DNA from: a virus | Taxonomy: Duplodnaviria; Heunggongvirae; Uroviricota; Caudoviricetes | DNA length: 64,000 bases | IMG/VR virus record: IMGVR_UViG_3300005613_000033 | Location: 19,132-83,131 of that record | Strand: one strand, 5' to 3' | In this document: one piece after another, positions 11,913 to 60,722 of the stretch | How positions within the stretch are numbered: position 1 is the first letter of the stretch | How the letters are laid out: the number at the start of each line of letters is the position of its first letter | Made by a program: the position numbers and the translations under genes | The notes under the pieces: generated by a model | What the model was told of the DNA's origin: nothing | Database searches by the model: none | Seen by the model: the letters and a program-made list of their open reading frames with translations, nothing else

Positions 11913-11923
11913 GGAGCGACATA

Positions 11924-12247: not shown

Positions 12248-12261
12248 AACTGAGGTGTACA

Positions 12262-15631: not shown

Positions 15632-18600
15632 ATGGCTACGTATTACTGGAGATCGTCGGTCAATAACACCTGGACCTCAAATAACTGGTCAACTACTGAC
15701 GGTGGTCCACTTAGTGGAACTTATCCACAGGCTGGCGATACAGCTATTTTCAAAGCTTCTAGCGGGCAAGGTAATTGCGGGCTGGATGCTAATGTTTCCA
15801 TAACAAAATTGGACATGCGCTCTGATTACACAGGGACGCTAAGTGGTAATACGTACAATTTCACGACAACTGGTGACATGATTATCGCCGGTACACAGAT
15901 CATAGCGGGTAGTGGTACCTGGACAACCGCAGGTCATTTGAACTATGTAAATGTGGGGACGTTTACGCCAAATGCCTCAAAATTCATAATGACCGGGACA
16001 GGAAAAACACTAACCAATAGTGCCGCAAATCGATACTTTTATGATCTTGAAATCAATGGGACAATTTCTGCCGTGGGGGCTGTCTTGTGGCATAATTCGC
16101 TTACGATTAAAACAGACAAATCATTGACACTAACCGACACCGATGCTGGAAACTACAACCTTGGTGGGACTTGTATCTCGAAATTGTACTTGGAATCCGG
16201 GGCAGATTTTGATCTAGGTGGACACCAAATTAATTGGTTTACTCCTGGTACAGGTGGTGTCCAGTCGATGGCGTCTACGGCTCGTATTCGTAATGGATCG
16301 ATTCGTTGTCTCTACCCCTCAACAACTACAGGTGTAGGGGTTTGGGATTTTGGGGCTACTTATGGTTGGGAAGTTAACTTCCGTGTGTTTGGACCTTCAG
16401 GTAACGATGGACATTTTACATTCCCGAATAAGGTATGTAAGATTGGTGGTTATTTTCGTGCTGAGATTCGTTCTTGGTATCCGAATGGTAGTCTCACACT
16501 CCATGCGGCCGGTAGCTCAACTGACGTGCAAATTAGTGGCTATTTTGCCACTCTCTCCGATACAGTTAATATTGGGTCTGTCAATGTCGATAACACAGGG
16601 GTGACTGGAAATAAATGGACGTTCAACAGTCATGTATATGATTGGATGGAAACGGCAAATGGTGCATCACGAGGGTGGACAAAGAATGCTGAATCCTGTT
16701 ACGCCAGTAGCGCAGTTGCCAGGGATTGGGACTTTACGAACTGGACAGTCCAAACCATTCAAATCTATGCTTCCAGTGGCACAGTCACTATGAATTCGGA
16801 TGTTAATTGTGTAAACTTCGACGTTAGTCAAGGTACATTCGATGCCAATGATTATGATCTCTATGTGCAAGGAAACTTCTTTGTTCGGACAAATGCCACT
16901 TGGACATTAAGTTCCAGCACCATTATCAATCTTACTGGTTCTGCTGCATCACAAATTGAAGCAGTCCCACGAGTCGATCCTATTACATTAAATCGAACTG
17001 GTGCTGGTGGTATGACGCAATCTGGGAATGTTCATACATCAAATCTAGTACTAACAGATGGGTTTTGGACTGGGGTTTCCTATGATCTTGAAACTCACGC
17101 TGGGTTGTCAAAAGGGGCTAGTGCCGGCCCTATCGACCTTGGAACTGGTGATATTACAGGTTGGGGCGATATCGATATCACAAGCATGGATGCGACAGGG
17201 TGTCAAATTATCTTTGCAGCATCTAAAACTCTAACCTATACCAATTGGCAATACCTAGATAGACTACAAATTATCAATAGTTCGACATGTTCATTGATGG
17301 CGGGTACGGACATAGTGATTAACATCACTGGTTCTGTGGATCTTCAAGCTAATTCGACATTCGATACTAAAGACCAACGTGTTTATTGCTGGACTGATGC
17401 AAGGGTTTGGATTCGGACAAATGCCCTGTGGACTGGTACACGTCAGCAATCACTACTATTCTATAATACTACATCAGGTAATGGATTGGTACTGAATGAC
17501 GGAATCTACGCTGGTTACGAGCTTCGATTCTATCAATGTACAGCGGGGACGCGATGGGCACCAGGGGTTTATAATCAGATTACTACTTACATTTATGGTG
17601 GTAATGATTGCTATATAAAACCCGACGCGGGAACTTTTTACCTCGCCAATCATCTGAGATTAAACAATATTAGTGGTAACGCCGTTTACATAGACATGAC
17701 AAATAATCCCACTTTCCAAATAGGAGGAGATTGTCTGTACGGCGGTGGTATTACGTCTGCCGATATTTTTTGGACTGTTAACGATGAGACATTTGAATTC
17801 GTTGGGTCAGCTAATCAGGAGTATGAATGGGCCCATGAAATTGGAAACGTTGTAGTAGATAATTCGGGTACAGGTAGTGATCTCTTCTTGAATCTTGGTT
17901 ATGGAGCCCACTTACATTGTAAAAATTTAACTGGTACTGATGGTGGAATTAACTGTGACTCACATCAAGTTACTGTTGAAGGAGATTGTGTCCTTGATTT
18001 CGATAACTTGACAACAGGTGGTGCAGATTGGAATTTATATGGTCATTTTGATTGGAAAGATGTGACAACTTGGTCAGTAGATTCTAGTCAAAAGTTCATA
18101 ATGAATGGGGTTGACAAGTATCTATTGGGAGGTGGTACAAAAGCCCTTCCATATCTGACGATTCCGGCAGGCAAATCAGCTTATATTCATGCTAGTACAA
18201 GCGTGGCAGTTGATATTAATTCTGCGGCTACTATTGCTGGTACTTTAACTGTCGATGGCACTGTTGATTTTCGACTTTATAGTGCTAATCTAACAGTTGA
18301 AACAACTGGCACCGTAACAGGTACTAGTGATGTTATCTTTTATCTGGCTGGTAGCAACACCGGGCTTATCCTAAATGGTTCTTACACCTATAGCCCCGCT
18401 CGAACATACTTTGTTGATCCAGACACAACCTCATTGATCCCAGCAGGAACTTATGGTGGGCATATTCGAGTTCATTCTACAAGTGGTGTCAAAACATGGC
18501 AACCTGATACCGGGACTTATGATATTTCTGGATATCTACTCTTTGAAGCTGAAGATGGGGATACATTGAATGTAGATTGCCGATCCTCACAACCTGTTTT

Positions 18601-21600
18601 TAATGTTGGAAGTCTTCTGTTCTTGCGGTCTGGGGCGACATCAGGTGGTTTGAATGTCTATTGTAACCACCCAACTCTGGATATTGACTGGACTATCAAT
18701 GGTACTTCATCCTATCACTTCGCTACCAATAATTGGTTCAAGGGTTCAGGCACCATTACTTTCAACGGTGGGGATACCCGTGAAATTGACTTCTATGATA
18801 ATGAAGTTGAAAATATCATCATAAATAAAACAGGTGGTACGGATATCTCGTTAGCTTACGAGTTGAAGTGTGATAGTCTTACAATCAATTCCGGCGATTT
18901 TGACGCATCAACATACGATGTAACAGTTGGTGACCTTACTTTAACAGGAACGGGTGCAATAGACTGGGGTGATAATACCTGGGAAATCTCAGGTAATATC
19001 TCTACCACTGGCCAAAGTGGAACTTGGATAGGAGGAGGTACAACTTGGAATCTATCAGGTTCGGGGAAAACATGGACGCAACGAGACAATATGGTCATCG
19101 CCAATACCTGGATCAAATCGGGCGCTAGCTACAATTGTTCGGGTATTATTATACCGGTCTATGGTTCTGGAAGTACCTTTATAATAGATGGTACAATCAC
19201 TGGGATTGCTAGCTTCCGGTGTTACTATGGTGAAATACATCTAAATTCGACAGGTGTATTTCAAGCTAACTTTATACGTTCGTATCTGGCACAAGATGGT
19301 GGTGGATTTACTACCTGGGATGGTGATTATGATTCATTGAGTGGCTTGCTCCACCTACGAGAGTGGCACACAGCGGGGGTTATGGTTCCGGCTGATTACT
19401 CGGCCCATAACTTAGAAGTTCGTATAGAGTCCCGATTGCATAATGGTGATATGGTGTTTAGCAGCGGTACCTACACATTCCATCATTTAACATGCCAAGC
19501 AATATATGCTGGTTATACCACAGCTATCAATACAACCAACAATCCTGATATAATTATTAAGGGTAACCTTAATAGCGACGTAACATTGGGGACCTTAACT
19601 TGGACAAAGGGTACTGGTACAATTACTATGGATTCCACAGGCGACTATATCATTGGGATGGGTGGCCTAGAATTAGAAAATATGGTGATTGATAAAAATA
19701 GTAGTATCACCTTAACAGCGGACCTCGATGTAACTAGCCTCGAAATTAGCAGCGGTGACTTTGATGCGGCAGGATATAATGTCACAATAAGTTCTGATGC
19801 TCTGGATATCTCAACATCTGGAACCGTAGACTGTGGAAGCGGTGACTGGACGTGTTGGGGTGACGTAATTATCGACGGTATAGGTACCTATAATGTTGAC
19901 ACCGCCAATTTCTATCTCAAAGGTACAAGTAAAGGGATTGCTACAGCCACAGATTATTGGGGTTTTGAAAATCTTTATGTCACGGGGTCGTACACTGCCA
20001 ATGGTTTAGGGGATGCGGATAACGTTTACGTCGCAGGTATCTTGGATATCACTGGAACATTTATTACAGGTAACACAAACACAGGTGGGCTAACACTTGC
20101 TGTCAATACTGATCTTCGTATACAAACAGGCGGGACTCTAACCGGTGGTGGGGCAACGACGGGTGAGATACGATGGTACTTCCCAGAAGTAGGTATCACA
20201 GTCTTAGATGGAACTTGGAGTAATTGGATTACACAAATTTACTACCCTAATACCGCAGCGAATTGGGTACCAGGAACGTATGATTGCCGTATCGAGTGGA
20301 TAACCAGCCCTGATGTTGCATGTGTTGTTAATTTTGACGCAGGTACTTACAACTTTACAGGTGGTTTAATTCAATTCCGTGTAGGTATCAGTGGGAATAT
20401 TCACGATGAAGATTTGACTGTCAATCTAAATGCCGGTACGGTCTTCAATACTAGTAATGATACTGCGTTCGGATTTGCAATGACTGAATCAACCAGTACA
20501 GGTGATCTATATTTTAATTGCAATAATGCAAACTTCAATTTTAGTGGCAACGTTTTCCTAAATGACTCCTCACCCGGTAGTGATGTGATCTATACTAAAG
20601 GTACAGGGACTATCACATTTGAGGGTGACGTAAATCAATTTGTTAATATGCCGTATTCATTGGAAGACATTGTAGTCAATAAATCAGCTAATACAGTAGA
20701 TTTTGTGAGTGCTATCACATGTGAGACCTATACCCTAACCTCTGGCGGGGCCGATTTCAATGACGATGCCACGACTGGTGTTGTTAGTATCACAGGCGGT
20801 ACTCAGAGTATGACTGGGACTAACAAGACCTGGACTTGTCCATCTTTCACCGTAAATGCAGGTGTGTCAGCCACAGTTGATGTGAATGACAACAATGTGA
20901 CGATCACCGGGGCTGGTGATCTGTCCTTTCTCGCGAACTGCAACATTTCATTCGGATCACGGACCTGGACTTGCAATGGTGATTTCTTTGCCACCGGTGA
21001 CACTGTAGTCTTCACCCGTGATACAAGCACATTGAGGCTTACAGGTACGGGTAACTTTACTTGTACAGGGAGCCTTTCAACAAAGTATCTCTATAGTATT
21101 GAAATTCCAGTTGGTGCAGTACGTACTGTACTTGCCGGAAGCAACATGTGTAGCTACAATACTGTTGGAACAGATGCAAGCATAGACGTTGATGGGACTC
21201 TCACTTTGAACGGGAGCGGTAGAGCTTTCTACCACTCAAAAATCAATCTCAATACTGGCGGTATAATTAACGGTAGTTCATTTCTCCAATGTTATGCTAA
21301 TGATAATGGTGGTGGACTTACGACATTAGATGGTACGCTGACACCTGGAACATTCTATCTGGATTACCCAACTGCTACCGCTATCTGTGTGTCAGGAACA
21401 TACGACTGTACTGTCTATGTTCAATGTAATGATTCTTCAAACAGCGTGTGGCAACTTTCCGCTGGCACCTACATTTACAACTATTCGGTGTATTATCAAG
21501 CTACGGATGCGGCTGGAAGTTTGACAATTAATGGAAGTGTCAACAATCCGGATCATGTCTACAAGCAACATGTCTTCTGGACCAATACAGGTGATGTTTT

Positions 21601-23140
21601 CTGGACGGCTGGAACTGGTACAATTACGTTCGATGACATTGGAGACTACGAAATTGACTTTGGTAACGAACTCATTGAAGACGTCCATATTGAAAAAGAT
21701 AGCCCGGGTAAAATAACTCTGAGAAATGATAACTTTTCAGCGGGTTCGCTTACTATCACAACTGGGGAATTTGATGCAAATGACCATGATGTTACCTTGA
21801 CTGGTGACTTTTATCAAGCCGATCTCACTAAATGTTATGCGGGTACAGGAACATGGACTATTAGTGGTGGGTTTGATAATTCATCTATTACAGCCGGTAA
21901 TAATTATTGGTTGGCTGAAGGTGGTGAAGTTAAGCTGGTAGGTACCGGTAATCTGAAATCCGAAGGTTGGAATTGGCAGAATGAATTTCATAAATTGACC
22001 ATTGAAGGTGACTATACAATCCCAGCTACTTCAAATGCGGTAACGGTATACGATGGTGCAGATGGTTGGTTGAAAATTGTAAATGGTGCGTCTTTAGTAG
22101 TAGATAATTCTGAAGGAGCTTGGGTTCGTGGTGATAATAATTTAATTGTTGAAAATGGCGGAACTCTCACAGTCACTGGCGGATTTTATGCGTTCCGACC
22201 AGGTATAGGTTATGGTGTAACTAATGATGGTATCATTAATGGGACTGGTAGATTCCGATTCTATGAGTATCAAGCTGGTGCTATAGCTACATCAGGAAAC
22301 TATAGTGTTCGATATCTTCAAATTTATTATGGTAGTAAATTTGAAATGGGGGCGGGGACTTGGATTACTGATAATATATATTTTGGTGCCTCTGATCAAA
22401 ATCTTATTATTGATATGAATTCTAATGATCCTATTATTAACACTTCTGGAGATGTAACCTTTAGAAACTTCTCTAATCACCAACTGACAATTAACCGTTC
22501 AGGAACTGCTAATGACTGGACAATTGAAGAAGATTTTACACGCAATGATACTGGATCATTTGTGTATACGAAAGGTGATGCTAATCTTTGTTTTGAAGGT
22601 GGTGGTACTCAAGTATACGACTGCGATGGTTTTGATGTAGAAGATATTATTATTGAGAAGTCAGGCGGTACTATGACACTGGAATCTGAATTAACTTGTG
22701 ATAGCTTGACACTTTTAGAGGGTGAATTTGATTTCAACGGACAAACAGTACAAACAACGGGTGACTTCATAATCAATGCAGCTAATGGTACGGATGCCAC
22801 AATTGTATCGGATGCCGATGCAATGAATGCAGCAAACATTACAGTAGGGAATGATTTTTATGTTTCTAACATTACGTTTAATGCAACTAATACATGGTAC
22901 TTAGACGTTCAGGGTGTAAATGCTCATGCTTATGACGTATCAGTACGATATAGCGATGCAAATGCAGGTACGACTATCGACGCGACGGCTCCAGGTAACA
23001 CAGATTTAGGCGTGAATTACAATTGGGACTTTGGACAATTACCGGGTGGAGCAGTAAGTAGTATTCACTCATTATCGTTCCACTGTTTCCCATGGACTCG
23101 GCACACTAATAGACATGTTCGCGGTAATCGCCGCATCTAA
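15632..23140 (+). CDS. giant 2502-aa modular Gly/Thr/Asn/Trp-rich protein (beta-helix-like fibre or adhesin candidate)
   Basis: About eight diverged ~300-aa modules, each containing GTGTITF(D/E)G ... N/EKxGG(T) ... L(T)IxSG(D/E)FDAx(x)YDVT. Examples: LTINSGDFDASTYDVTV, LEISSGDFDAAGYNVTI, LTITTGEFDANDHDVTL, LTLLEGEFDFNGQTVQT. No TM segment. Confidence 0.6.
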   Translation: MATYYWRSSVNNTWTSNNWSTTDGGPLSGTYPQAGDTAIFKASSGQGNCGLDANVSITKLDMRSDYTGTLSGNTYNFTTTGDMIIAGTQIIAGSGTWTTAGHLNYVNVGTFTPNASKFIMTGTGKTLTNSAANRYFYDLEINGTISAVGAVLWHNSLTIKTDKSLTLTDTDAGNYNLGGTCISKLYLESGADFDLGGHQINWFTPGTGGVQSMASTARIRNGSIRCLYPSTTTGVGVWDFGATYGWEVNFRVFGPSGNDGHFTFPNKVCKIGGYFRAEIRSWYPNGSLTLHAAGSSTDVQISGYFATLSDTVNIGSVNVDNTGVTGNKWTFNSHVYDWMETANGASRGWTKNAESCYASSAVARDWDFTNWTVQTIQIYASSGTVTMNSDVNCVNFDVSQGTFDANDYDLYVQGNFFVRTNATWTLSSSTIINLTGSAASQIEAVPRVDPITLNRTGAGGMTQSGNVHTSNLVLTDGFWTGVSYDLETHAGLSKGASAGPIDLGTGDITGWGDIDITSMDATGCQIIFAASKTLTYTNWQYLDRLQIINSSTCSLMAGTDIVINITGSVDLQANSTFDTKDQRVYCWTDARVWIRTNALWTGTRQQSLLFYNTTSGNGLVLNDGIYAGYELRFYQCTAGTRWAPGVYNQITTYIYGGNDCYIKPDAGTFYLANHLRLNNISGNAVYIDMTNNPTFQIGGDCLYGGGITSADIFWTVNDETFEFVGSANQEYEWAHEIGNVVVDNSGTGSDLFLNLGYGAHLHCKNLTGTDGGINCDSHQVTVEGDCVLDFDNLTTGGADWNLYGHFDWKDVTTWSVDSSQKFIMNGVDKYLLGGGTKALPYLTIPAGKSAYIHASTSVAVDINSAATIAGTLTVDGTVDFRLYSANLTVETTGTVTGTSDVIFYLAGSNTGLILNGSYTYSPARTYFVDPDTTSLIPAGTYGGHIRVHSTSGVKTWQPDTGTYDISGYLLFEAEDGDTLNVDCRSSQPVFNVGSLLFLRSGATSGGLNVYCNHPTLDIDWTINGTSSYHFATNNWFKGSGTITFNGGDTREIDFYDNEVENIIINKTGGTDISLAYELKCDSLTINSGDFDASTYDVTVGDLTLTGTGAIDWGDNTWEISGNISTTGQSGTWIGGGTTWNLSGSGKTWTQRDNMVIANTWIKSGASYNCSGIIIPVYGSGSTFIIDGTITGIASFRCYYGEIHLNSTGVFQANFIRSYLAQDGGGFTTWDGDYDSLSGLLHLREWHTAGVMVPADYSAHNLEVRIESRLHNGDMVFSSGTYTFHHLTCQAIYAGYTTAINTTNNPDIIIKGNLNSDVTLGTLTWTKGTGTITMDSTGDYIIGMGGLELENMVIDKNSSITLTADLDVTSLEISSGDFDAAGYNVTISSDALDISTSGTVDCGSGDWTCWGDVIIDGIGTYNVDTANFYLKGTSKGIATATDYWGFENLYVTGSYTANGLGDADNVYVAGILDITGTFITGNTNTGGLTLAVNTDLRIQTGGTLTGGGATTGEIRWYFPEVGITVLDGTWSNWITQIYYPNTAANWVPGTYDCRIEWITSPDVACVVNFDAGTYNFTGGLIQFRVGISGNIHDEDLTVNLNAGTVFNTSNDTAFGFAMTESTSTGDLYFNCNNANFNFSGNVFLNDSSPGSDVIYTKGTGTITFEGDVNQFVNMPYSLEDIVVNKSANTVDFVSAITCETYTLTSGGADFNDDATTGVVSITGGTQSMTGTNKTWTCPSFTVNAGVSATVDVNDNNVTITGAGDLSFLANCNISFGSRTWTCNGDFFATGDTVVFTRDTSTLRLTGTGNFTCTGSLSTKYLYSIEIPVGAVRTVLAGSNMCSYNTVGTDASIDVDGTLTLNGSGRAFYHSKINLNTGGIINGSSFLQCYANDNGGGLTTLDGTLTPGTFYLDYPTATAICVSGTYDCTVYVQCNDSSNSVWQLSAGTYIYNYSVYYQATDAAGSLTINGSVNNPDHVYKQHVFWTNTGDVFWTAGTGTITFDDIGDYEIDFGNELIEDVHIEKDSPGKITLRNDNFSAGSLTITTGEFDANDHDVTLTGDFYQADLTKCYAGTGTWTISGGFDNSSITAGNNYWLAEGGEVKLVGTGNLKSEGWNWQNEFHKLTIEGDYTIPATSNAVTVYDGADGWLKIVNGASLVVDNSEGAWVRGDNNLIVENGGTLTVTGGFYAFRPGIGYGVTNDGIINGTGRFRFYEYQAGAIATSGNYSVRYLQIYYGSKFEMGAGTWITDNIYFGASDQNLIIDMNSNDPIINTSGDVTFRNFSNHQLTINRSGTANDWTIEEDFTRNDTGSFVYTKGDANLCFEGGGTQVYDCDGFDVEDIIIEKSGGTMTLESELTCDSLTLLEGEFDFNGQTVQTTGDFIINAANGTDATIVSDADAMNAANITVGNDFYVSNITFNATNTWYLDVQGVNAHAYDVSVRYSDANAGTTIDATAPGNTDLGVNYNWDFGQLPGGAVSSIHSLSFHCFPWTRHTNRHVRGNRRI

Positions 23141-26113: not shown

Positions 26114-26127
26114 ACCAAGTCTATTAT

Positions 26128-26158
26128 GGGTGCCCAGCCTTCGGGCTGGGCCCTTTTT
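26128..26158 (+). terminator. rho-independent terminator
   Basis: GGGTGCCCAGCC-TTCG-GGCTGGGCCC followed by TTTTT. Confidence 0.75.
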
Positions 26159-26182
26159 CTAACACGTAAAAGAGGACACAAC

Positions 26183-26491
26183 ATGGACTTAATGCTTTTT
26201 TCACAGGTAGACCCATTGATTTGGACTAATCTACTCTCCCAGTATGGTCCATTGATTGGCGTTGTTCTTTTCTTTATTTGGAGGGATTGGAAACGAGAAG
26301 ATAAGCTCAGTGAGCGTATCAATTCATTAGAAGACTATCAAAAAGAGACGCTAGCGGAACTTGTATCACAGTCAACGGTAGCTTTGACACATAGTGCTGA
26401 TTGCATGAAATGGGTCGGAGCAGTCATGTCGAAAGTCTGTGATCGTTGTCCTGAGTTAGATGGTTGTCCAAAACCACCAGAGAATAAGTAA
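26183..26491 (+). CDS. small membrane protein (102 aa) with C-terminal CxxC...C cluster
   Basis: ATG at 26183 with RBS AAGAGGA. TM helix LIGVVLFFIW. The ORF-track start at 26126 lies inside the terminator hairpin. Confidence 0.45.
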   Translation: MDLMLFSQVDPLIWTNLLSQYGPLIGVVLFFIWRDWKREDKLSERINSLEDYQKETLAELVSQSTVALTHSADCMKWVGAVMSKVCDRCPELDGCPKPPENK

Positions 26492-26506: not shown

Positions 26507-29500
26507 ATGAGCTATCAAGAACGCCGCTACCGACGAATGGTACGACAAGTCCTCTATGGACTGAAGCGTCAATATGGCGCAGATATTGCCGTATACAAGC
26601 TGCTGGATGCTGATACAGACTATACAACTGGTCTCAAAACCATTCATAAGCTAAGTGAAGAGTTGGAAGCAGTCGTTATACCTACTAAGATAGCACGTGA
26701 AGCCATACAATCCATCTCCCAAATTTCCGCTAATAAGGCGATGGTGTATGGTGGAACTTTCGATAGTTTGAGTAAGACATTTGTAATTGATTCGCGTGAT
26801 TTATCAGATAATTGGACGTTTACAAATGACGATTGGATTGTCTACAATCAACAACGTTTTGAAATTAAGGCTATAGAACGATTAGATTTCCATGCCGGTT
26901 GGATTATTGATGCAAAGGCTATTGCAGGTCAACATGCAGAACAAATCTTTCATTTAGAGGCGTGGAACAGATTATGTGACTTAACTCATTTTGCGGAAGT
27001 AGTACCGTGGTCAGCACATCATCCTAGTCAGGATATTCCTATTGACCATAATGTCTCAGTCCAAAAGATAATGTACCGCAGTGCGGAGAATACATTAACC
27101 TTGGGGCATTCTGTTTTCCTTGGGCAAGCTGAAAGTTTTGCAGCAGGAAATACTTTGACGTTGGGACAATCTGTTGATAAACAGAGAGTAATGTTTTTCC
27201 ATATTATCGAAGATGGCTTAGTCTTTAATACTCTCGGGCAAGGTATTGAAATTATCAAAGTTATTCAACGCATATTCGGGCATGAAAAAAGTGAAATTGA
27301 ACTTCAGCATGCGGTTAGCTTAGCAGGAAGTGTTTGGAATAGGCAAGCCGAATCCAATCTAACCTTAGATCACAGTGTCGATGTTTCGGGTGTCTGGAAT
27401 CGTCATCCTGAAAGTCAAATTGATTTAGATCATACTGCTGATCCATCTGGAAGTATCTACAACCGATCTGCCGAGAATACTCTAACACTTACTCACGAAG
27501 TTAGCACTGCTGGCACCTCGCTTGGAACACCAGTTGAATCAGAACTTGATTTGGACCAGGTGGTTAGTTACTCTGCCGTCTTCAATCGGGGTGCAAGTTC
27601 TGAGATTGGTATTGACCAAGAGGTCAATATCGAAGGAAGTATTTGGTATCGAGATGCTGAATCTGATATCAGTATTGACCACGGTGCTAGTATTGTTCAT
27701 ATACTCCATGCTAATGCTAAGAATACATTAACCTTAGGTCAATATGTTGCTGCTACCTATGTCCAGTATGCTACGGCCCAATCTAGCCTTAGTTTAGGGC
27801 AAGATGTTGAGTCTCAAAAAGTAATTTATCGTACTGCTGAATCTAATCTTGGGTTAGATGCGTTTAGTCAGTACGTTTTAGTGAGTACACATCGTGATTT
27901 AAGTGCTTCATCAAGTATTAGTCTTGGTCAAGATGTAAGTACAGAAGGTAGTATTTGGAATCGTAATCCAGATAATGAGTCATTTGAGGGGTCAACACTC
28001 ACATTAGATCACACAGCTTCTACAGAGGGAAGTATCTGGAATCGGGGTCCTGATAATACACTTACTCTAACACAGGATGTAATTAGCTCCGGTAGCATCT
28101 TCAATCGAGACCCACAATCAGATATTGATCTCGATCAAGATGTTGCAAAAACACGAGCCCAAAATGATGGATCATCCTCTGAACTTGAATTAGATCATGG
28201 GACTGGCGTTCTAGTCGTACGACCACGTAGCGCTCAGAATGATATTAGTGTAGACCATGGTGTAATTGTTCAAAAGGTCATGTATGCGTCAGCGCAATCT
28301 GATTTAAGTTTGGTTGGAGTTTGCAATTATCAAGTTGGGTCAGAAGGTAACGGTATAAGCACGTTGACTTGCGGGCACAGCGTAAGTCTGGAAGGAAGCA
28401 TTTGGAATAGGGGCCCAGATAATAACACCTTGGACGGTAACACTCTCACCCTTGGACAGACTACCCAACTGTCCGTAATTCGTCAAAGAGATGCCCAATC
28501 GACTCTGTCCTTGAGCCAAGAAGCAAGTGCGGCTGGAAGCATCTATAATCGAGGGGCAGAGAATACTCTAACCTTATCGCAAGATGTAATTAGTTCTGGT
28601 AGCATCTTCAATCGTGATTTGCAATCAGATATTGATCTCGATCAAGATGTTGCAAAAACACGAATAGCAAGTGATGGTTCGTCATCTGAACTTGAATTAG
28701 ATCATGGAACTGGCGTCCAAATTATTCGTTCACGTAGTGCTCAGAATGATCTTAACATAGACCATGATATCACTGTTCAGAAGGTGATATATGTATCAGC
28801 ACAATCTGATTTGAGTTTGACCGGTATTTGTAATTATCAAGTCGGAACCGAAGCCAATGGCGTAAGTACGTTGACTTGCGGGCACAGCGTAAGTCTGGAA
28901 GGAAGCATTTGGAATAGGGGCCCAGATAATAACACCTTGGACGGTAACACTCTCACCCTTGAGCAGACTATCCAACTGTCCGTAATTCGTCAAAGAGATG
29001 CCCAATCGACTCTGTCCTTGAGCCAAGAAGCAAGCGCGGCTGGAAGCATCTATAATCGAGGGGCAGAGAATAGTTCACTAGAAGAGTCAACATTAACCCT
29101 CACACAAAATACCAGCTCTACGGGCAGCATCTACAATCGTGGCCCCGATAATAACACCCTTGAGGGCTCTCAGTTGGCCCTTACGCAGCAAGTAGACGTA
29201 CAGGCCATTCTGAGTCGGGGTGCCAGTAGCACGCTCTCTATGGGCCACACAGCGTCCGTATTGGTGTATCGTGGACAGGCAGTTGGTAACACATTGTCAT
29301 TAGACCACGATGTGACTGCCCAGAAAACAATGAGCCGTGACGCGGAAAGTACACTCAGTATCCTTGACGCGGCAAACGTACAGAAGATTATCCACAAGTC
29401 AGCTAGTTCACCACTCAGCTTGGCACAACAAGTTGGACTCTCGATTATCCGAGAACTGTCGGCCAGCAACCAGCTTATGCTATATCACGATGCACTGGTC

Positions 29501-31432
29501 TCAGCAGTATATAATCGTGGTGCTATTTCAACACTTGATCTGGACCAAACGACTCATGCCTCGCATGTCGCCATGCGGGCTGCTACGTCGGTCTTAACCT
29601 TGGGGCATAATGTCACTGTTTCGAGAGTAACCGAGCAAGTAGCCCAGTCTGATCTTTCGTTAGATCAAGCAACGTCTGTGATCCATGTCTTCAACAAGAC
29701 AGCAGACAATACACTCACCCTTTCGCATGATACAACTGTTCAAAAGATAATAACCCGAGCCGCCACAAATACCCTCACCATATCACACGATGTGGGATTA
29801 TCTGTCATTCGAGAGTTGGCGGCTCAATCTGATTTGACTTTGAGTCAAGATGTCGGTTTATCGGTGGTTAGAGAGCTTGGGGCAAGCTCGGAATTAACCC
29901 TGGACCACACGGCAAGCTATCAAGGAACGTTCCAACGTGGTGCTCAGAGTGATTTGAGTATATCACATGACGCCAGTGCGGCTGGTAGCGTTTGGAATCG
30001 TGCGGTTCAATCGGACGTCGGGGTTACTCAGGATGTTGGTTTGCAACACGCCCATGGGCGTGCTGCCCAATCAAACTTGACCATCACATCCGATGTAATC
30101 AGTTCGGGTAATATCTTCAACCGTTCATTAGAAGACTCAATGAGTATTACTCATATTGCGGATGGTGGGCCGACATTTGGACGTGTTGGTGATAGTACAT
30201 TACAAGTTGAACAATCTGTTAGTGTCTCCGCAATCCGGCCACGAGATGGTGACTCTAATCTAACCTTAGATCAAACCGTTACGAGTCAAAAGATCATGTC
30301 ACGAGTAAGTGACAGTGATATTGGGGTAGACCATGATGTATCACATCAACGTTTGGCATTCCAAAATCCCGATTCTGATATCGATGTAGACCATGATGTA
30401 ACAGTCGCAGCGACCCGAAACCATGATGCTGACAACGATATCAACATAGACCATGAAGTAGCTCTGTCGGCTATTCGAGACCGAGATGCTGATTCAGACA
30501 TTGATATAGACCACGATGTGGCATATCAAGGAATCTTTAATCGGGCTGGTAGTAATACATTGGCCTTGATACAGGATGCGACTTTTTCAGCAGTATTCAA
30601 TCAAGATGGTAGTTCAACACTAGTCTTAGATCACGACGTTGATTACGAATTAGTCCATGAAATACCTGAACAATCTGCCAACAATGATATTGGAATTGAC
30701 CATAATGTAAATATCCAGAGGATTATCTACGCTAATGCCAGTAGCACTGTTGGAATCGACCACGAAGTTAGTCTCCTTGCCACCGCATTAACGGCGGCAT
30801 GGCATTTGAATGAAACAAGCGGTGTTCGTTACGACTCATGGGATGCGCATGACTTAACTGATTGGAATACGGTTGGTTATGGAGCAGGTATAACAGGCAA
30901 TGCTGTGGTCTTTGTTGCCGATAATGACGAACAATTGATTGCGGCGAACCATGCTGAATTACAAGCTGGAGGTAGGGGCTTTGAGCTTACAGGTTGGTTT
31001 AAGACCACTGATCCCAGTAATGTTCAAATCATCTTTGGAAAATGGTATAAGAGCACGAAGGATCGGGAATTTAAGGCCCACATCAAGAATAATACGGCCC
31101 AATTTACCGTCTCCAGAAATGGTAATGCCAAAACAACAGTAACCAGTACCGTCACCCTTTTGGCCAACACTTGGTACTTCATAGATGTATGGCATGATGC
31201 TGTCAATAATGAAATTGGTATTGCTATTGATAACGGGACACCAAATACCTTAGCTCACACTACGGGTGTTTTTGCTGGGCGCGGTGATTTTACTATCAGT
31301 GGTGACCACGGTTTGAATGATCTATTCGATGGTTCAGTAGATGCTTTACATTACTGGCAACGTGTCTTGTCCAGTGAAGAACGAACATGGCTATACAATA
31401 GTGGAAATGGTAGAGAAGTTCCACCATTTTAA
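26507..31432 (+). CDS. 1641-aa repeat protein with C-terminal LamG/ConA-like domain (fibre or decoration candidate)
   Basis: About 50 copies of a ~27-aa unit (..L-x-L-x-H-x-V-x-x-x-G-S-I-[WYF]-N-R-x-A-E-S-x-L-x-L..). C-terminal ~200 aa AAWHLNETSGVRYDSW ... FDGSVDALHYWQRVLSSEERTWLYNSGNGREV has a LamG-like pattern. Confidence 0.55.
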   Translation: MSYQERRYRRMVRQVLYGLKRQYGADIAVYKLLDADTDYTTGLKTIHKLSEELEAVVIPTKIAREAIQSISQISANKAMVYGGTFDSLSKTFVIDSRDLSDNWTFTNDDWIVYNQQRFEIKAIERLDFHAGWIIDAKAIAGQHAEQIFHLEAWNRLCDLTHFAEVVPWSAHHPSQDIPIDHNVSVQKIMYRSAENTLTLGHSVFLGQAESFAAGNTLTLGQSVDKQRVMFFHIIEDGLVFNTLGQGIEIIKVIQRIFGHEKSEIELQHAVSLAGSVWNRQAESNLTLDHSVDVSGVWNRHPESQIDLDHTADPSGSIYNRSAENTLTLTHEVSTAGTSLGTPVESELDLDQVVSYSAVFNRGASSEIGIDQEVNIEGSIWYRDAESDISIDHGASIVHILHANAKNTLTLGQYVAATYVQYATAQSSLSLGQDVESQKVIYRTAESNLGLDAFSQYVLVSTHRDLSASSSISLGQDVSTEGSIWNRNPDNESFEGSTLTLDHTASTEGSIWNRGPDNTLTLTQDVISSGSIFNRDPQSDIDLDQDVAKTRAQNDGSSSELELDHGTGVLVVRPRSAQNDISVDHGVIVQKVMYASAQSDLSLVGVCNYQVGSEGNGISTLTCGHSVSLEGSIWNRGPDNNTLDGNTLTLGQTTQLSVIRQRDAQSTLSLSQEASAAGSIYNRGAENTLTLSQDVISSGSIFNRDLQSDIDLDQDVAKTRIASDGSSSELELDHGTGVQIIRSRSAQNDLNIDHDITVQKVIYVSAQSDLSLTGICNYQVGTEANGVSTLTCGHSVSLEGSIWNRGPDNNTLDGNTLTLEQTIQLSVIRQRDAQSTLSLSQEASAAGSIYNRGAENSSLEESTLTLTQNTSSTGSIYNRGPDNNTLEGSQLALTQQVDVQAILSRGASSTLSMGHTASVLVYRGQAVGNTLSLDHDVTAQKTMSRDAESTLSILDAANVQKIIHKSASSPLSLAQQVGLSIIRELSASNQLMLYHDALVSAVYNRGAISTLDLDQTTHASHVAMRAATSVLTLGHNVTVSRVTEQVAQSDLSLDQATSVIHVFNKTADNTLTLSHDTTVQKIITRAATNTLTISHDVGLSVIRELAAQSDLTLSQDVGLSVVRELGASSELTLDHTASYQGTFQRGAQSDLSISHDASAAGSVWNRAVQSDVGVTQDVGLQHAHGRAAQSNLTITSDVISSGNIFNRSLEDSMSITHIADGGPTFGRVGDSTLQVEQSVSVSAIRPRDGDSNLTLDQTVTSQKIMSRVSDSDIGVDHDVSHQRLAFQNPDSDIDVDHDVTVAATRNHDADNDINIDHEVALSAIRDRDADSDIDIDHDVAYQGIFNRAGSNTLALIQDATFSAVFNQDGSSTLVLDHDVDYELVHEIPEQSANNDIGIDHNVNIQRIIYANASSTVGIDHEVSLLATALTAAWHLNETSGVRYDSWDAHDLTDWNTVGYGAGITGNAVVFVADNDEQLIAANHAELQAGGRGFELTGWFKTTDPSNVQIIFGKWYKSTKDREFKAHIKNNTAQFTVSRNGNAKTTVTSTVTLLANTWYFIDVWHDAVNNEIGIAIDNGTPNTLAHTTGVFAGRGDFTISGDHGLNDLFDGSVDALHYWQRVLSSEERTWLYNSGNGREVPPF
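28060..29075 (+). repeat. recent in-frame tandem duplication of a 507-bp (169-aa) block inside the 1641-aa gene
   Basis: The block starting ggtagcatcttcaatcg recurs at 28091 and 28598 (offset 507 = 3 x 169). The two copies share >100-nt identical stretches, for example the segment encoding SLEGSIWNRGPDNNTLDGNTLTL. The stated span is approximate and covers both copies. Confidence 0.8.
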
Positions 31433-31442
31433 GGAGTAGATG

Positions 31443-33134
31443 ATGGCAGTAGATATTGATGCCACATTGATCGCAGTTGATGCAGAAATTGTCACTTACT
31501 ATCAAGATATTCTTGATATGCAGTCGTCTTATTATACGACTAATAGTAAGTATGCACAGGGCCTCCCGACTCATGCTGTCTTACCTGAGGATGGTTTGGA
31601 GGCTGCACCTACAGAATTGGCTCAATCACCGACCGACCAAGCTGAGTCTTGGAACGATCTAATTACGCTTCCGAGCACATTGAAAGCAGCAATTGAAATC
31701 GATATCTATCAAACACCAACTGGTTGGGGCTACATTATAACTTTCAGATTACTCATAAATGGAATTGAATGGGTTAAGAGTATTGACGAAGGACCGACTG
31801 GTAGAGATCGAGATTGGTACCCTTTATCTGATGATACGTGGGAAGAGGATGTTGTTAGCTATTGGCCATTCAATGAGACTAGTGGAACTCGATACGACCA
31901 GGCTGATGATAACCACTTTACAACGTATAATACACCTCATTACACTGCAAATGGTATGTTTGATAATGCGCTTTGGTGTCAATGTAGCAGTGATGAATAT
32001 ATAAAAACTTCAATGAGTGACGAACTCGCTAATGATAGTAGTTGGACGTTTACTGGTTGGGTTTATATAGACGATAATGGGGATGGTGGACAATGGTTCT
32101 TTAGACTATTAGATAGTGAGGGATGGAATCCAGGTCTCCTTTTCTACAATTCAGGTGGAAGCTTTGAAGGTTATTGGGAGTGGTGGTTGTTTGGTTCAGG
32201 TTTAGGTTTTGATTACGTAACTGATTACGGTAACAAAAGATGGTATTTTATAGAAGTTTTTTATGACGCTGATACACAAAAAACAGGATTAGCCATTGAT
32301 AATTCCGTTCCGATTGAAGTATCCACCACCTATACAGAAAATGAACTTAAAAGTGTTTATTTTGGTGGAACTTTATCAGACGGTGGGGACGCGCAATTAG
32401 ACCAATGGCGATTTTTTAATAGACGGTTAACTCGTGCAGAAGCATTAGCACTATTTGAAGAACCGCAAATTGAAGATGATGTTGCAGCAACAGTTTATAA
32501 TGATTTACGTGCAGCTTGGCACATGGAAGAAGTTAGTGATACACGATATGATTCCATCAATGATTTTGATTTAACACCTGCAGGTTCCGTCGATAGAATA
32601 GCTGGTAAATTAGGTTATGCTGCTAATTTTGACGCCAGCAATAATGAAGAATTAGTCATGTCCTATGACGGACCGTCAAGTTGGTGGTCAACCGATTGGT
32701 CGATGGGTATGTGGTTGAGAATAAATTGCAATTATGGGCAGAAAGTCTGGAATCTCAAAAATGGTCTTTTCTATTGTGGTTTTCTCCAATATAATTCCGA
32801 TATCAATGAAATTTGTTTCGAGTATGGTTCAGCTATTCAAAGTGGTTTGTATGCTTTGACACCATCAGGTTTTGATGATGACGAATGGCATTGGGTATAT
32901 TGGCAATATGATGCTACAGCTAACGATATTGGGATTAGTGTAGATGATGGCCCCCTGCAAACGCGGACTCAAGTAGGTAGTTTACCAATCGGCACAGATT
33001 TGATAAAATTTGGTTGTAGGTATAGCTATGGGGATGACTGTGACATAGATGCCGCACATTGGTGGGGTAAATTACTTACACAAGCAGAGCGTGAATATAT
33101 GTATTACCAAGGTATTGGACGGGAGCTTGAATAA
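31443..33134 (+). CDS. protein with two LamG/ConA-like domains and an N-terminal domain shared with the next gene
   Basis: YWPFNETSGTRYDQ... and AAWHMEEVSDTRYDS...YYQGIGREL both resemble the C-terminus of the 26507 protein. N-terminus MAVDIDATLIAV...LPTHAVLPEDG resembles MAVDVPTQLAIA...LRSHTTVPENG of 33134-33544. Start chosen at the second ATG (31443), 6 nt after AAGGAG. Confidence 0.55.
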   Translation: MAVDIDATLIAVDAEIVTYYQDILDMQSSYYTTNSKYAQGLPTHAVLPEDGLEAAPTELAQSPTDQAESWNDLITLPSTLKAAIEIDIYQTPTGWGYIITFRLLINGIEWVKSIDEGPTGRDRDWYPLSDDTWEEDVVSYWPFNETSGTRYDQADDNHFTTYNTPHYTANGMFDNALWCQCSSDEYIKTSMSDELANDSSWTFTGWVYIDDNGDGGQWFFRLLDSEGWNPGLLFYNSGGSFEGYWEWWLFGSGLGFDYVTDYGNKRWYFIEVFYDADTQKTGLAIDNSVPIEVSTTYTENELKSVYFGGTLSDGGDAQLDQWRFFNRRLTRAEALALFEEPQIEDDVAATVYNDLRAAWHMEEVSDTRYDSINDFDLTPAGSVDRIAGKLGYAANFDASNNEELVMSYDGPSSWWSTDWSMGMWLRINCNYGQKVWNLKNGLFYCGFLQYNSDINEICFEYGSAIQSGLYALTPSGFDDDEWHWVYWQYDATANDIGISVDDGPLQTRTQVGSLPIGTDLIKFGCRYSYGDDCDIDAAHWWGKLLTQAEREYMYYQGIGRELE

Positions 33135-33544
33135 TGGCTGTCGATGTACCCACACAACTAGCAATAGCTAACACACGAATTGCTTTCTACTGGCCTCGAA
33201 TCTGGCTGTTGCAAAAGTATGTTTGGAGTAATTTTGGATTCTATGTCCAAGGTTTACGTTCTCACACTACTGTTCCTGAGAATGGAAACTTAGAAGTTCC
33301 TGATTTTCCTAATTTAACAACGGAGGATCAACCTTTTGGTTGGGGACCTTTTTTAGGTTATTTTCCACCTAGTATGATGACAGCGCTGAGTGTAACTCCT
33401 TATCTATACCCAGGACACCAGCCGGGGTTCATGTGCAAATTTGAAATGCGACTGAATGGCGACCTATATGAAAAGCGCATCGCTTATGGTCCAGATTCAG
33501 ATAGTGAAACATTCGACTGGATAAAGATTAAGGAGAATGAATAA
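33134..33544 (+). CDS. paralogue of the N-terminal domain of the 31443 protein (136 aa)
   Basis: Shared motifs listed above. TAATG overlap. Confidence 0.5.
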   Translation: MAVDVPTQLAIANTRIAFYWPRIWLLQKYVWSNFGFYVQGLRSHTTVPENGNLEVPDFPNLTTEDQPFGWGPFLGYFPPSMMTALSVTPYLYPGHQPGFMCKFEMRLNGDLYEKRIAYGPDSDSETFDWIKIKENE

Positions 33545-34053
33545 TGGCTGCTAATCCCAATTGGCCACGATGGATATTCTCTTCCTTAGCCGTACATTTT
33601 AAGGGTATAGCCGATGGACTAAATTTACCTATATTGACGGAAGGTATTGATGAACGTGAACCCGAGAAGATGGAAGTAGATAGATGTGAATTACGAATAA
33701 ATGGCCCGTACATACGAGAAGTGAGTAAAAACTATTGGCGAATTTGGATTAACGTAAATATACTGTTGACGGACTACATGGAGGGACAGGGAGAGAACAC
33801 GTACAAACTCATGAACTGGGGTGGTGCGTTTCTTGAAGGCATGAACTTGCCGATCCCAATATACAAATATGGTCCTGATGTGGGTGGTATAGACGATCAA
33901 ACGCTCTTGGGTTGTCTAACCATGTTGCGAGGGAATAGGATCGAGAGCATTAGGTTGATCCATTTCGGACAGATTGGAAGCGAGGAACGCATCCGACAGG
34001 CCGCAGTGGATGGTAGATTTGAGATGTACCTTAACTTTCCAAATGGAGGCTAA
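33544..34053 (+). CDS. hypothetical structural protein (169 aa)
   Basis: RBS AAGGAG. TAATG overlap. Confidence 0.45.
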   Translation: MAANPNWPRWIFSSLAVHFKGIADGLNLPILTEGIDEREPEKMEVDRCELRINGPYIREVSKNYWRIWINVNILLTDYMEGQGENTYKLMNWGGAFLEGMNLPIPIYKYGPDVGGIDDQTLLGCLTMLRGNRIESIRLIHFGQIGSEERIRQAAVDGRFEMYLNFPNGG

Positions 34054-43432: not shown

Positions 43433-44461
43433 ATGGCGGGTTTGCTTTTTATGGAAGGTTTTGAAACCTTCGGTGCGAATGGTGACACCGGGAGTGCGTT
43501 GCAAGATGTAATACGAACCAAATGGCCTCAAGTCACTCTGAGTTCCAGTGCTAAACTTAGTGATGATGCCTATGAAAGTCAAGGACTTTGTCTTGACGGC
43601 GTCAGTGGTAGCTCATCGTATCGCCTTACCTACAATCATCATACCGCTACCAACGAACTGATTGTAGGGTTTGCTTGGTACACGGGTACACTTTCATCAT
43701 ATTACTTGTACCAGGCTATAAGTCTGAATTCCCAATTTAGGTTATATGCGTATAGTGATGGACATTTTCGTATTTACCATGGGTCAACTAACACTGATAC
43801 AGGTATACTATTTTCTGCCAATACTTGGTATTATGTTGAAGTCAAATTCAAAGTGGATAGTTCACCCAATGGATATTGGGAACTTTATTTGGATGGTGAT
43901 CTAAAAGCATCTGAAACAGGAGTCGCTACATGGTCAACTTCATATCCAAAAGAAGTCTCCTCCCACAACTGGATTCCAAGAAATGTAGGTTGTCGTTTTG
44001 ATGATATATACATCTACGATAACACCGGAGATGTTCAAGAGCCCTTCGGCCCTGTGAAGATACGTGCGTTGCTTCCTGACGGTGATGATACAACTGATTG
44101 GACTTCAACGGGGGCTAATCACTATGATCAAGTAAACGATGTTCCTGTTGATACAGCCAACTACGTAGAAAGTAATACGGCAAATGATGTAGATTTGTTT
44201 ACTTTTGCTAACGCACCTGACCCATCGAATTGGCCAATATACGGTGTGCAGCTAAATCTCTATGCTGCCGTCACCGATGTTGGTCTTTTTACATTAGAGG
44301 GTATTACGGACTCGAATGGTTATCAAGATACAGCTAACGAAACTATCATTGACCATTTAGGCGGTCAGTATGCATTCATTTTTGAAACTGATCCTGAAAC
44401 CTCGAACGCTTGGACAATAGATCAACTTAATGATGCTAAATTTGGCGTAGGAGTAGAGTAA
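43433..44461 (+). CDS. tail protein paralogue 3 of 3 (342 aa)
   Basis: ATG at 43433 with RBS GAGGGAG. DGDDTTDWTS, YGVQL, ETDPETSNAWTIDQLNDAKFGV. Confidence 0.55.
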   Translation: MAGLLFMEGFETFGANGDTGSALQDVIRTKWPQVTLSSSAKLSDDAYESQGLCLDGVSGSSSYRLTYNHHTATNELIVGFAWYTGTLSSYYLYQAISLNSQFRLYAYSDGHFRIYHGSTNTDTGILFSANTWYYVEVKFKVDSSPNGYWELYLDGDLKASETGVATWSTSYPKEVSSHNWIPRNVGCRFDDIYIYDNTGDVQEPFGPVKIRALLPDGDDTTDWTSTGANHYDQVNDVPVDTANYVESNTANDVDLFTFANAPDPSNWPIYGVQLNLYAAVTDVGLFTLEGITDSNGYQDTANETIIDHLGGQYAFIFETDPETSNAWTIDQLNDAKFGVGVE

Positions 44462-46083
44462 TGGCCAATGCTAGGCTATCTCGACAGCAAGTAGAAGTCA
44501 TTGGACGATTAACTTCCAAACTTCGGGTTGGTGGTCAAAGTCTCATGGTGGCTGGTGCTGCACAGAATGGAAAGTTGCGTGTCCATGGGGTCACTCTGGA
44601 ATACATGACTAAAATCCTTCCTGAAGAAGCCAGTAGTGATATAGGTGTTGACCAGGGCATAGTTGTGTCTCATGTGGCCCAGAGAGGGGCTGTGAGCGAT
44701 CTCAGTGGCACTTTAGGGCAAGTGGTCGCACTGAACGGGAGTGTCTACAACAAGGCCCCTGGGGACACAATAGGGCCTACTGAGTCTGGAATTGAACATT
44801 CGGTACAAGTGAGTGTAGTTCGCAATCTTTCAGCTAATAATGCTCTCTCCTTAGACCAAGATGCTTTTATACAGCAGCCCACGTTTAGTGATATTGGAAT
44901 TGACCATTCGGTTCAAGTCAGTGTTGTTCGCAATTTATCAATTGGGAATACAGTAGGCGTAGGCCAAGGAACGGGTACAAACCAACACATAGAAAGTGCT
45001 AACAGTGATCTAGTAGGTTTAGATTCAGAAGCTACTACTATCCAAGCTTTCAGTCGCTCTGCTAATAGCAATTTAGCAGCGACACTCGACCATAGTTCCA
45101 CTGTAATTGTTGCAAAAACCGCTCAAAATACTATTGGGATTAGCCAGACTGTTGAAGGTTACAGAGTACTATCCTTCAATGTTGAAAATGAATTAAATTT
45201 GCAACAAATCCCCTTCCCGGTATCACATCCATTTGCTAGCAGTGATATTGGTATAGACCATAGTGTCAGTGTTCAAAAGATTCTCCATAGATCCCTTTCA
45301 CATGATATTGGAATCTCTCACAATTTTGTTAGGACAGGCAACCTACGAGTCGGCGCATTTAATGTTTTGTCAGGTTGGAGTTGGGTGTGGAATCCATCAA
45401 CCAAAACGTATGAAGAGACGTGGGTTCAAATGACATCGACGGCTGAAGTTGAATATGTAAAGGGTGTAGATCAGATTTGGGAATCCGCTAGTAGTCAAAT
45501 AGAACTTGGCCAATCAGTTTCTTACCAGGCCATATTCAATCAAGCCCCAGCAACAGATATTAATATCAAACAAACGCTTGGATACTCATTTATTCAAGAT
45601 ACAACATTCTGTGATTATGATCCATCTGTTGGATGGACTTCAAATACATATGCGCCATTACCACCACCAGTAACACCACCAGTTCTTGAGCCAGAATTAT
45701 ATGACGGTGTGCAGCTTTCCTATCCATCTACTACGCCCACAGATGTAATTTATCTGCGAGGCCCAGAGCTAGGGAACGTCGATCAATTTAATACCCAACG
45801 TATCAATCGTGAGTCTCGGGGTGGTCATCTAGTTGTTTTCCGAGATTTCTATTGGCCCCGAACTAAGACAATGCGATTTTCATTCACAGGATTAACTGAA
45901 CAAGAAGGACAAGAGGTTCTCGATTTCGTTGAAACCTCTGTAGGTAAGGAAGTTAAACTTCGAGATTGGGAAGGTCGAGAATGGTTGGGTGTAATTACTT
46001 CAACTAACGAACCTGTAGTGCGTAAACAAGATAGTTGTAATCTCACCACTGATCTAGAATTTGAACTCACAGATGGAACTTAA
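44461..46083 (+). CDS. 540-aa fibre-like protein with the same ~27-aa repeat family as the 26507 gene
   Basis: Units such as SDIGIDHSVQVSVVRNLSANNALSLD and SSDIGIDHSVSVQKILHRSLSHDIGISH. PPPVTPPV linker, then a C-terminal globular part. Confidence 0.5.
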   Translation: MANARLSRQQVEVIGRLTSKLRVGGQSLMVAGAAQNGKLRVHGVTLEYMTKILPEEASSDIGVDQGIVVSHVAQRGAVSDLSGTLGQVVALNGSVYNKAPGDTIGPTESGIEHSVQVSVVRNLSANNALSLDQDAFIQQPTFSDIGIDHSVQVSVVRNLSIGNTVGVGQGTGTNQHIESANSDLVGLDSEATTIQAFSRSANSNLAATLDHSSTVIVAKTAQNTIGISQTVEGYRVLSFNVENELNLQQIPFPVSHPFASSDIGIDHSVSVQKILHRSLSHDIGISHNFVRTGNLRVGAFNVLSGWSWVWNPSTKTYEETWVQMTSTAEVEYVKGVDQIWESASSQIELGQSVSYQAIFNQAPATDINIKQTLGYSFIQDTTFCDYDPSVGWTSNTYAPLPPPVTPPVLEPELYDGVQLSYPSTTPTDVIYLRGPELGNVDQFNTQRINRESRGGHLVVFRDFYWPRTKTMRFSFTGLTEQEGQEVLDFVETSVGKEVKLRDWEGREWLGVITSTNEPVVRKQDSCNLTTDLEFELTDGT

Positions 46084-60711: not shown

Positions 60712-60722
60712 TTTCGATTTAT

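Follow-up and report, generated by a model that had tools for sequence, protein, structure and literature searches.

We found that a gene for a 1641-amino-acid (aa) protein, located at 26507-31432 on the + strand of the window, likely specifies a neck fibre fused to a phage head-completion ("stopper") protein. The window is a stretch of 64,000 nucleotides (nt) from a virus of the class Caudoviricetes (positions 19,132 to 83,131 of the IMG/VR record IMGVR_UViG_3300005613_000033). According to this reading, to which we assign a probability of roughly 65%, the stopper has a C-terminal extension of ~1,500 residues that forms a fibre with a lectin-like tip, probably present in 6 or 12 copies. The gene starts with ATG, and the open reading frame (ORF) described in an initial annotation of this DNA was confirmed in the ORF list of the window. 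That annotation overlooked the N-terminal stopper domain, which is best read as the defining point of the protein. The gene and its parts, with the evidence for each, are as follows.

26507-31432, +: whole gene, stopper-fibre-LamG protein, 1641 aa; kept as a single ORF in the relatives L001, L013, L014 and P0020
26507-26941, +: aa 1-145, domain read as head-completion (stopper, neck) protein; PF05521 and PHROG matches of relatives, fold and synteny
26942-27034, +: aa 146-176, linker; predicted local distance difference test score (pLDDT) below 50 in the AlphaFold2 (AF2) model, 77% identity to the relative P0001
27035-30808, +: aa 177-1434, array of ~60 units of a 20-aa repeat; autocorrelation, hidden Markov model (HMM) of the unit, spacing counts
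28061-28567, +: aa 519-687, copy 1 of a 507-nt block; identity profile at offset 507, codon comparison
28568-29074, +: aa 688-856, copy 2 of the block; same offset profile, missing in P0001/L001
28361-28565, +: near-identical tract of copy 1 (partner 28868-29072); 5 mismatches in 205 nt
30809-31429, +: aa 1435-1641, LamG / ConA-like jelly-roll tip; Pfam PF13385, AF2, Foldseek

The N-terminal domain

The N-terminal domain belongs to a family whose members are mostly proteins in their own right. A search with aa 1-176 gave 15 relatives, mostly stand-alone proteins of 165-170 aa. Scanning metagenome and genome contigs with an alignment of the domain gave 85 further loci, nearly all of them again stand-alone (~167-175 aa). 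In the relatives, the order of genes is coat, a protein of ~95 aa, the stopper homolog, a protein of 162-164 aa, tail tube, chaperones and tape measure. This placement of the homolog in the stopper slot was seen in L002, L003, L005, L010, L030, L046 and L050, and stand-alone orthologs of ~167 aa occupy the stopper position in ~80 related contigs. Where the stopper is stand-alone, a homolog of the 169-aa protein that is encoded farther downstream in the window lies directly 3' of it. A search of the window with the family profile found no second stopper homolog.

Profile and fold comparisons point in the same direction. Twelve of 16 members of the N-domain family matched PF05521 (Phage_HCP), the best with an E-value of 8.1e-5, and P0007 matched PHROG 161, 'head closure Hc1' (E 0.002). 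The AF2 model of the domain, made from the family alignment, had a pLDDT of 73 and a predicted template modelling score of 0.69. When this model was compared to the PDB with Foldseek, the best 14 matches were phage neck or connector entries or stopper-like prophage proteins, with probabilities of 0.97-1.00. The top matches, at probability 1.00, were neck 2 of 7-7-1, the neck of Pam3, the SPP1 gp6/gp15/gp16 connector and the T1 stopper; the stopper-terminator complex of R4C was also among the best. Searches of PDB sequences with the domain and with its profile gave nothing significant. Based on the fold, the weak profile matches and the synteny taken together, aa 1-145 are best read as a head-completion neck protein.

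Relatives whose N-domain is at least 66% identical to that of the window always carry the repeat extension. In addition, the stand-alone stoppers P0004-P0016 (alignment A2) end in a QLxLxQxV motif that resembles one repeat unit, and P0012 and P0014 have a similar repeat-like unit on the N-terminal side of the stopper domain. As far as motifs can tell, these resemblances hint that the repeat array may have grown from the stopper's own tail.

A full-length word-index search gave P0001 alone, and the relatives that it missed came from other routes. An exact look-up of the 1641-aa protein gave no record, and a scan of IMG/VR viral contigs gave no relative. Some of the stopper relatives are on large contigs (444 kb and 290 kb) of metagenome-assembled genomes (MAGs) of Planctomycetota, which suggests prophages and a lineage associated with Planctomycetota; QQVP01000119.1 and CAUJHS010000076.1 are two such MAG contigs. 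To our knowledge, few phages are known for Planctomycetota.

The repeat shaft and its length changes

The array of repeats between aa 177 and aa 1434 is strongly regular, as the initial annotation had stated, and its period is 20 aa. The BLOSUM62 autocorrelation of this region peaked at lag 20 (+0.40), and the maximum of 500 shuffles over lags 5-60 was -0.44. An iterated unit HMM placed 52 unit starts. The 51 start-to-start spacings were 20 (27 times), 21 (10 times), 27 (five times), 23 (once) and 40-47 (eight times), and each of the eight long spacings conceals one undetected unit. That is, there are ~60 units of 20 aa with the consensus LTLDHDVSVSGIRNRDADSD, not the ~50 copies of a 27-aa repeat that had been proposed from the sequence. 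The best-conserved positions of the unit are L/I-1, L/I/V-3, H/Q-5 (invariably H or Q), V/A-7, I/V-12, R-15, A/P-17 and S/N-19. AF2 predicted two beta-strands per unit (5 and 8 residues) and an all-beta shaft with no helices. Tandem Repeats Finder reported no repeat in the gene; the program is limited to periods of 500, and the units have diverged too much for it.

Neither Pfam, PHROGs, NCBIfam nor PDB sequences contained a match to the repeat, and PHROGs and NCBIfam also lack a family for the protein as a whole. A HMMER search with aa 230-1429 against 1.84 billion representative proteins gave 63 proteins at E ≤ 1e-3. These included the short ortholog P0020, giant proteins of 3,604-5,090 aa, and a set of proteins of 450-650 aa with differing end domains. 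One member of this last set, P0021, is an ortholog (48% identity) of a 540-aa protein of the window that contains ~9 units of the fibre's repeat (44461-46083, +; repeat HMM E 5.6e-13). Since the fibre's repeat is also in this tail-region protein, the repeat appears to behave as a generic fibre-shaft module of the phage lineage, a notion that fits the data. The 540-aa protein is encoded 3' of the tape measure gene, in the tail-tip region. The N terminus of the protein is MANARLSRQQVEVIG; neither this end nor the conserved C-terminal domain gave a family match.

We mapped duplications within the protein by a diagonal scan and found a direct repeat whose copies are offset by exactly 507 nt (169 aa), which bears out the head-to-tail duplication noted earlier. 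The two copies are not uniformly similar. Codons 512-618 are 78.5% identical at the nt level to their partners 169 codons away, with 29 codons that have only synonymous changes and 24 that have non-synonymous changes. Codons 619-687 differ from theirs at 5 of 207 nt (97.6% identity). Uninterrupted identity extends over at most 94 nt (28361-28454 and 28868-28961), and there are other perfect runs of 63 and 37 nt. The stretch of more than 100 perfectly identical nt that had been placed at 28091 and 28598 was not found; around those positions, identity in 30-nt windows is ~83% and perfect runs reach 42 nt at most. The description of the duplication as fresh therefore holds for a tract of ~205 nt (~98% identity) and not for the block as a whole, because there is ~20% divergence with many synonymous changes outside of this tract. 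From the pattern of identities, the simplest reading is an older duplication that was later patched over its 3' ~205 nt, probably by a recent gene conversion or recombination event. In its A part, copy 1 is slightly nearer than copy 2 to the block of L001/P0001, which is present only once there (nt identities of 69% and 64%, respectively).

Comparison of copy number among relatives indicated that the locus is indeed prone to changes in length. Relatives have from ~12 to ~65 units, and they differ in the number of copies of a block that contains the residues CNYQ:

P0020: 625 aa, with ~12 units by eye (the unit HMM detects 1) and a LamG tip; block absent
L001 / L013 (P0001): 1419 aa; block in single copy
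Window: 1641 aa; block duplicated with a period of 169 aa
L004 / L014: 1749-aa open frame; block duplicated with a period of 303 aa, plus ~5 tandem 20-aa units
L015, L016 and P0002: cut by contig ends; one copy of the block in the available sequence (L015, L016)

Length changes fall in whole units, and single units of 20 and 27 aa have been gained or lost. Three pieces of the window are missing in P0001: copy 2 of the block, a 27-aa unit with an insert of 6 aa, and a 20-aa unit. At the nt level, the two copies in the window share 81% identity in the A part and 98% in the B part, those in L004 share 83% and 90%, and identity between the genomes is 63-74%. Copies within a genome are thus closer to each other than to those of the other genome, and the duplications are therefore independent, lineage-specific recombination events. 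The same sub-block is the more homogenised one in both lineages. Of the recent slippage or recombination that had been suggested, lineage-specific recombination stands (the 169- and 303-aa duplications), and its recency is limited to the ~205-nt tract.

In L004, an in-frame TGA (10721-10723, after residue 256) splits the fibre gene into parts of 256 aa and 1471 aa. We considered programmed stop-codon readthrough and rejected it: L014 has CGA at that position. L014 is 99.85% identical to L004 over 13.7 kb, and all 11 differences within the gene are C to T or G to A in L004, which suggests that the TGA is deamination damage or a strain variant rather than recoding.

The lectin-like tip and the neighbouring genes

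The LamG-like end that had been recognized in the initial annotation is well supported. Residues 1489-1625 match PF13385 (Laminin_G_3) with an E-value of 1.1e-8 (35.8 bits vs a cutoff of 27.6), and in an AF2 model of aa 1130-1641 the pLDDT was above 90 over the LamG domain. Foldseek matched the tip to PDB entries with lectin-like or ConA-like jelly-rolls and to numerous LamG proteins from phages (E 1e-11 to 1e-15). The C-terminal ~200 aa are also, as proposed, paralogous to both LamG domains of the 564-aa protein encoded by the next gene (BLASTP E 1e-16 and 3e-11; 27-30% identity). Identity to P0001 drops from anchor to tip: it is 92% in the N-domain, 77% in the linker, 66% in the repeats and 51% in the LamG domain.

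Genes next to the fibre gene may belong with it. The 564-aa protein and the 136-aa protein encoded after it are paralogous over their first ~130 aa (BLASTP E 1e-12). Both genes were found only in contigs whose stopper carries the repeat fibre and are absent beside stand-alone stoppers. The two proteins are probably parts or accessories of the same appendage, and together with the fibre gene the genes at 31440-33544 have the appearance of a neck-appendage module of three genes, with its insertion between the genes for the stopper and the 169-aa protein.

The tip appears to be exchangeable in the wider family. In L011 (7950-9821 of CAUJHS010000076.1, the 290-kb Planctomycetota MAG contig), the stopper is followed by a few repeat-like units and then by WD40-like propeller repeats, which replace the long shaft and the LamG tip. 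In L051 (5439-8498) and L052 (3-1715), the open frame runs on for ~850 aa on the N-terminal side of the stopper domain, a possible N-terminal fusion; this extension contains 44-aa propeller-like repeats and a few 20-aa units. Separately, L006 (1483-8765 of an unrelated 68.7-kb contig) encodes a 2173-aa protein followed directly by a stand-alone 254-aa LamG protein, upstream of a tape measure. This LamG protein is 38% identical to the fibre tip, and the pair may be a fibre with a separately encoded tip.

The fibre gene is within a structural module of the siphophage type (scaffold, P22-type coat, terminase, tape measure). It precedes the genes for the tube and the tape measure and is away from the tail-tip genes. 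The relevant features of the window are listed below.

From 10245: large terminase
From 12262: 615-aa portal candidate
From 23741: scaffold
From 24656: P22-type coat
26126-26491, +: 121-aa conserved protein directly 5' of the stopper gene; candidate adaptor by position only
31440-33134, +: 564-aa accessory protein, a 130-aa N-domain and two LamG domains; Pfam, paralogy to the fibre tip
33134-33544, +: 136-aa protein, paralog of the N-domain of the 564-aa protein; BLASTP E 1e-12
33544-34053, +: 169-aa conserved protein, candidate for neck or tail joining; tblastn synteny
From 34059: 245-aa tail-tube candidate, by position
From 34870 and 35423: two chaperone-sized proteins
From 36087: 1348-aa tape measure
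44461-46083, +: 540-aa tail-region protein with the fibre's repeat, described above

The gene for the 121-aa protein precedes the stopper gene in every relative examined, and the protein had no family match in Pfam or PHROGs. It contains a hydrophobic, transmembrane-like segment, LIWTNLLSQYGPLIGVVLFFIW; such a segment seems unusual for an adaptor.

Several other features of this DNA and of its relatives are of note. An ORF of 2502 aa (15632-23140, +), between the portal-side genes and a 174-aa DnaT_2-like protein and the scaffold, is without a Pfam match; L004 has an 1866-aa protein at the equivalent position. A 1057-aa protein (5066-8239, +) contains an intein (Hint/Intein_splicing domains) with a LAGLIDADG homing-endonuclease domain. 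Two adjoining tRNA-Met (CAT) genes and one tRNA-Thr (TGT) gene are within 60639-63746 (+). In L002 (11004-13530), a GIY-YIG/NUMOD3 homing endonuclease is encoded between the gene for the 164-aa protein and the tube gene; the tube homolog of L002 matches twice (11694-12422 and 12466-13506), a hint that the tube gene is duplicated or split there.

The proposed neck fibre and its alternatives

Stopper rings are built from multiple subunits. That of SPP1 is a dodecamer. The ring of phage JBD30 is a hexamer (PMC11445458). We propose that, after DNA packaging, the N-domains would form a stopper ring of 6 or 12 subunits beneath the portal and adaptor, and that each subunit would project one beta-rich fibre, giving 6 or 12 fibres at the neck. 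A fibre in which every unit makes a single 4.8-Å rung would measure ~30 nm; with strands parallel to the axis, it would be longer. By analogy to other phages, the lectin-like tips might touch glycans on the host surface weakly, reversibly and multivalently and thereby raise adsorption. The carbohydrate-binding tips of the neck passage structures (NPS) of lactococcal phages bind host cells and aid adsorption (PMC6669499). The length of the shaft could change by unequal homologous recombination between repeat units, and gene conversion may keep portions of the duplicated blocks nearly identical.

The protein resembles several known systems in part. Its likeness to the stoppers of SPP1 (gp16), T1 and JBD30 (PF05521) is in the predicted fold, in weak family matches through relatives, and in gene position. 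In contrast to those proteins, which are ~100-170 aa and have no appendage, the stopper of the window runs on for ~1,500 aa as shaft and LamG domain. The shaft may be like those made of beta-solenoids or triple beta-spirals (FHA-type beta-helices, the adenovirus fibre shaft), which have short repeats of 15-20 aa with two strands per unit; the possible likeness is in the short repeats, the two predicted strands per unit and the ladder-like H/Q, R and S/N positions. PDB searches with the shaft gave no sequence or profile match to any solved structure. The tip is ordinary among phage Laminin_G_3 or ConA-like domains and is unusual only in its placement on a fibre anchored to a stopper.

Two groups of neck appendages are closest in overall design. 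The NPS of TP901-1 and the 936-group phages is also a neck fibre with a tip of the carbohydrate-binding type, a conserved anchor and a variable distal part, and it is non-essential in TP901-1 (PMC6669499). However, the NPS is made by a distinct protein that combines a BppU-like beta-sandwich ring with a trimeric coiled coil (PMC6669499), whereas the protein of the window has a stopper anchor and 20-aa repeats that are predicted to be all-beta. We rejected membership in the NPS family: the N-domain matches stoppers and not BppU, the shaft is predicted to be all-beta, and there is no PHROG or Pfam match. The second group contains T4 fibritin, gp82/81/80 of A-1(L) and the collar spikes of XM1, which are likewise long, flexible neck fibres; that of A-1(L) has a distal carbohydrate-binding module (CBM) (PMC10966104). 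These myophage fibres are separate docked proteins with coiled-coil or bead-chain shafts (PMC10966104, PMC10491603), whereas the fibre of the window is covalently joined to the ring subunit. Membership with T4 fibritin was also rejected: the prediction is all-beta, with a LamG C terminus and a fusion to the stopper, and fibritin is a separate protein with a coiled coil and foldon. The protein of the window is thus a functional analogue of the NPS and of fibritin and a member of neither family.

Some of our observations weigh against the proposed neck fibre. The window's own N-domain had no match to PF05521 at E ≤ 10, and the matches of its relatives are weak. The template modelling scores from Foldseek were modest when computed on the query (0.32-0.49) as well as on the neck-protein targets (0.32-0.69). 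The folds of stoppers, tail terminators and tube proteins are related, so the fold alone leaves the role unfixed. The shaft was modelled at a pLDDT of only 50-60. The gene had no match to 50,697 GenBank phage records by megablast and tblastn, and no cultured relative was found. Lastly, the tip of the analogous neck fibre of A-1(L) failed to bind its host (PMC10966104).

This last result bears on a different function for a neck fibre, one that is not adsorptive. The fibre could be a sensor or an aid to assembly, like the whiskers of T4, or a tether to particles, biofilm matrix or non-host surfaces. The fibritin whiskers of T4 aid tail-fibre assembly and control, and the A-1(L) CBM likewise sits on a neck fibre without binding the host (PMC10966104, PMC10491603). 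LamG is a generic binding module on many phage proteins, and the window has dedicated tail-tip proteins downstream of the tape measure, including the one with the 20-aa repeat. Nonetheless, we consider a non-adsorptive role to be on the unlikely side. The tip is the part that diverges fastest (51% identity vs 92% for the anchor), as expected for a module that tracks variable host ligands, and in L011 a WD40-like propeller takes its place, a kind of modularity that is typical of receptor binding. It is improbable, in our estimation, that the N-domain is stopper-like in fold only and that the protein is a tail or side fibre, or a head fibre attached to the capsid, with its anchor elsewhere. The weak PF05521 matches, the related folds of stopper, terminator and tube proteins, and the 20-aa repeat in the tail-region protein would all be compatible with such an anchor, but stand-alone orthologs fill the stopper slot in the ~80 related contigs, no other stopper-family gene was detected in the window, and the gene is upstream of the tube and tape-measure genes and not among the tail-tip genes. 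Interpretation as a tail fibre was rejected on gene position and stopper synteny.

It is also possible in principle that the 507-nt duplication, or even the whole ORF, was created during assembly by collapse, expansion or a chimera of strains, as the 205-nt tract that is ~98% identical between copies could mislead a short-read assembler. We regard such an artefact as very unlikely because the copies are distinct, the junction is unique, and an analogous duplication is in the assemblies of L004 and L014. The copies differ at 74 of 528 aligned positions and the reading frame is kept. In 30-nt windows, the junction between copy 1 and copy 2 shares only 57-70% identity with the sequence 5' of copy 1, so that it would require reads that belong to it alone. 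The independent assemblies L001/L013 and L004/L014, as well as P0020, conserve the long ORF, and the 303-aa duplication was assembled independently from two different samples (L004 and L014).

We favor the stopper-fused neck fibre, and if it is correct, several features of it would be new. A LamG tip and a long, repetitive structural protein are ordinary themes among phages. In contrast, the shaft repeat is rare and unannotated and is a candidate for a new fibre-shaft fold. In the literature that we found, the known neck appendages, whether fibres, collars or whiskers, are all separate proteins docked on the neck: T4 fibritin, the collar spikes of XM1, the appendages of phi29, the collar of Milano, the fibres of A-1(L) and the NPS (PMC6669499, PMC10966104, PMC10491603). 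More tentatively, and with some doubt, we suggest that the proteins described here could make up a new class of virion appendage: a stopper ring with 6-12 fibres, a new shaft fold, a length tuned by recombination, an exchangeable tip, and a repeat shared with a tail-tip protein.

If the fibre is a covalent extension of the stopper, ring stoichiometry would set the number of fibres, and assembly of the fibre would be tied to completion of the head. Such a fibre provides a simple, testable model of how phages may bolt adsorption modules onto conserved machinery. The family, with 12 to 65 units and independent block duplications, is a natural series in which to study how repeat proteins change in length.

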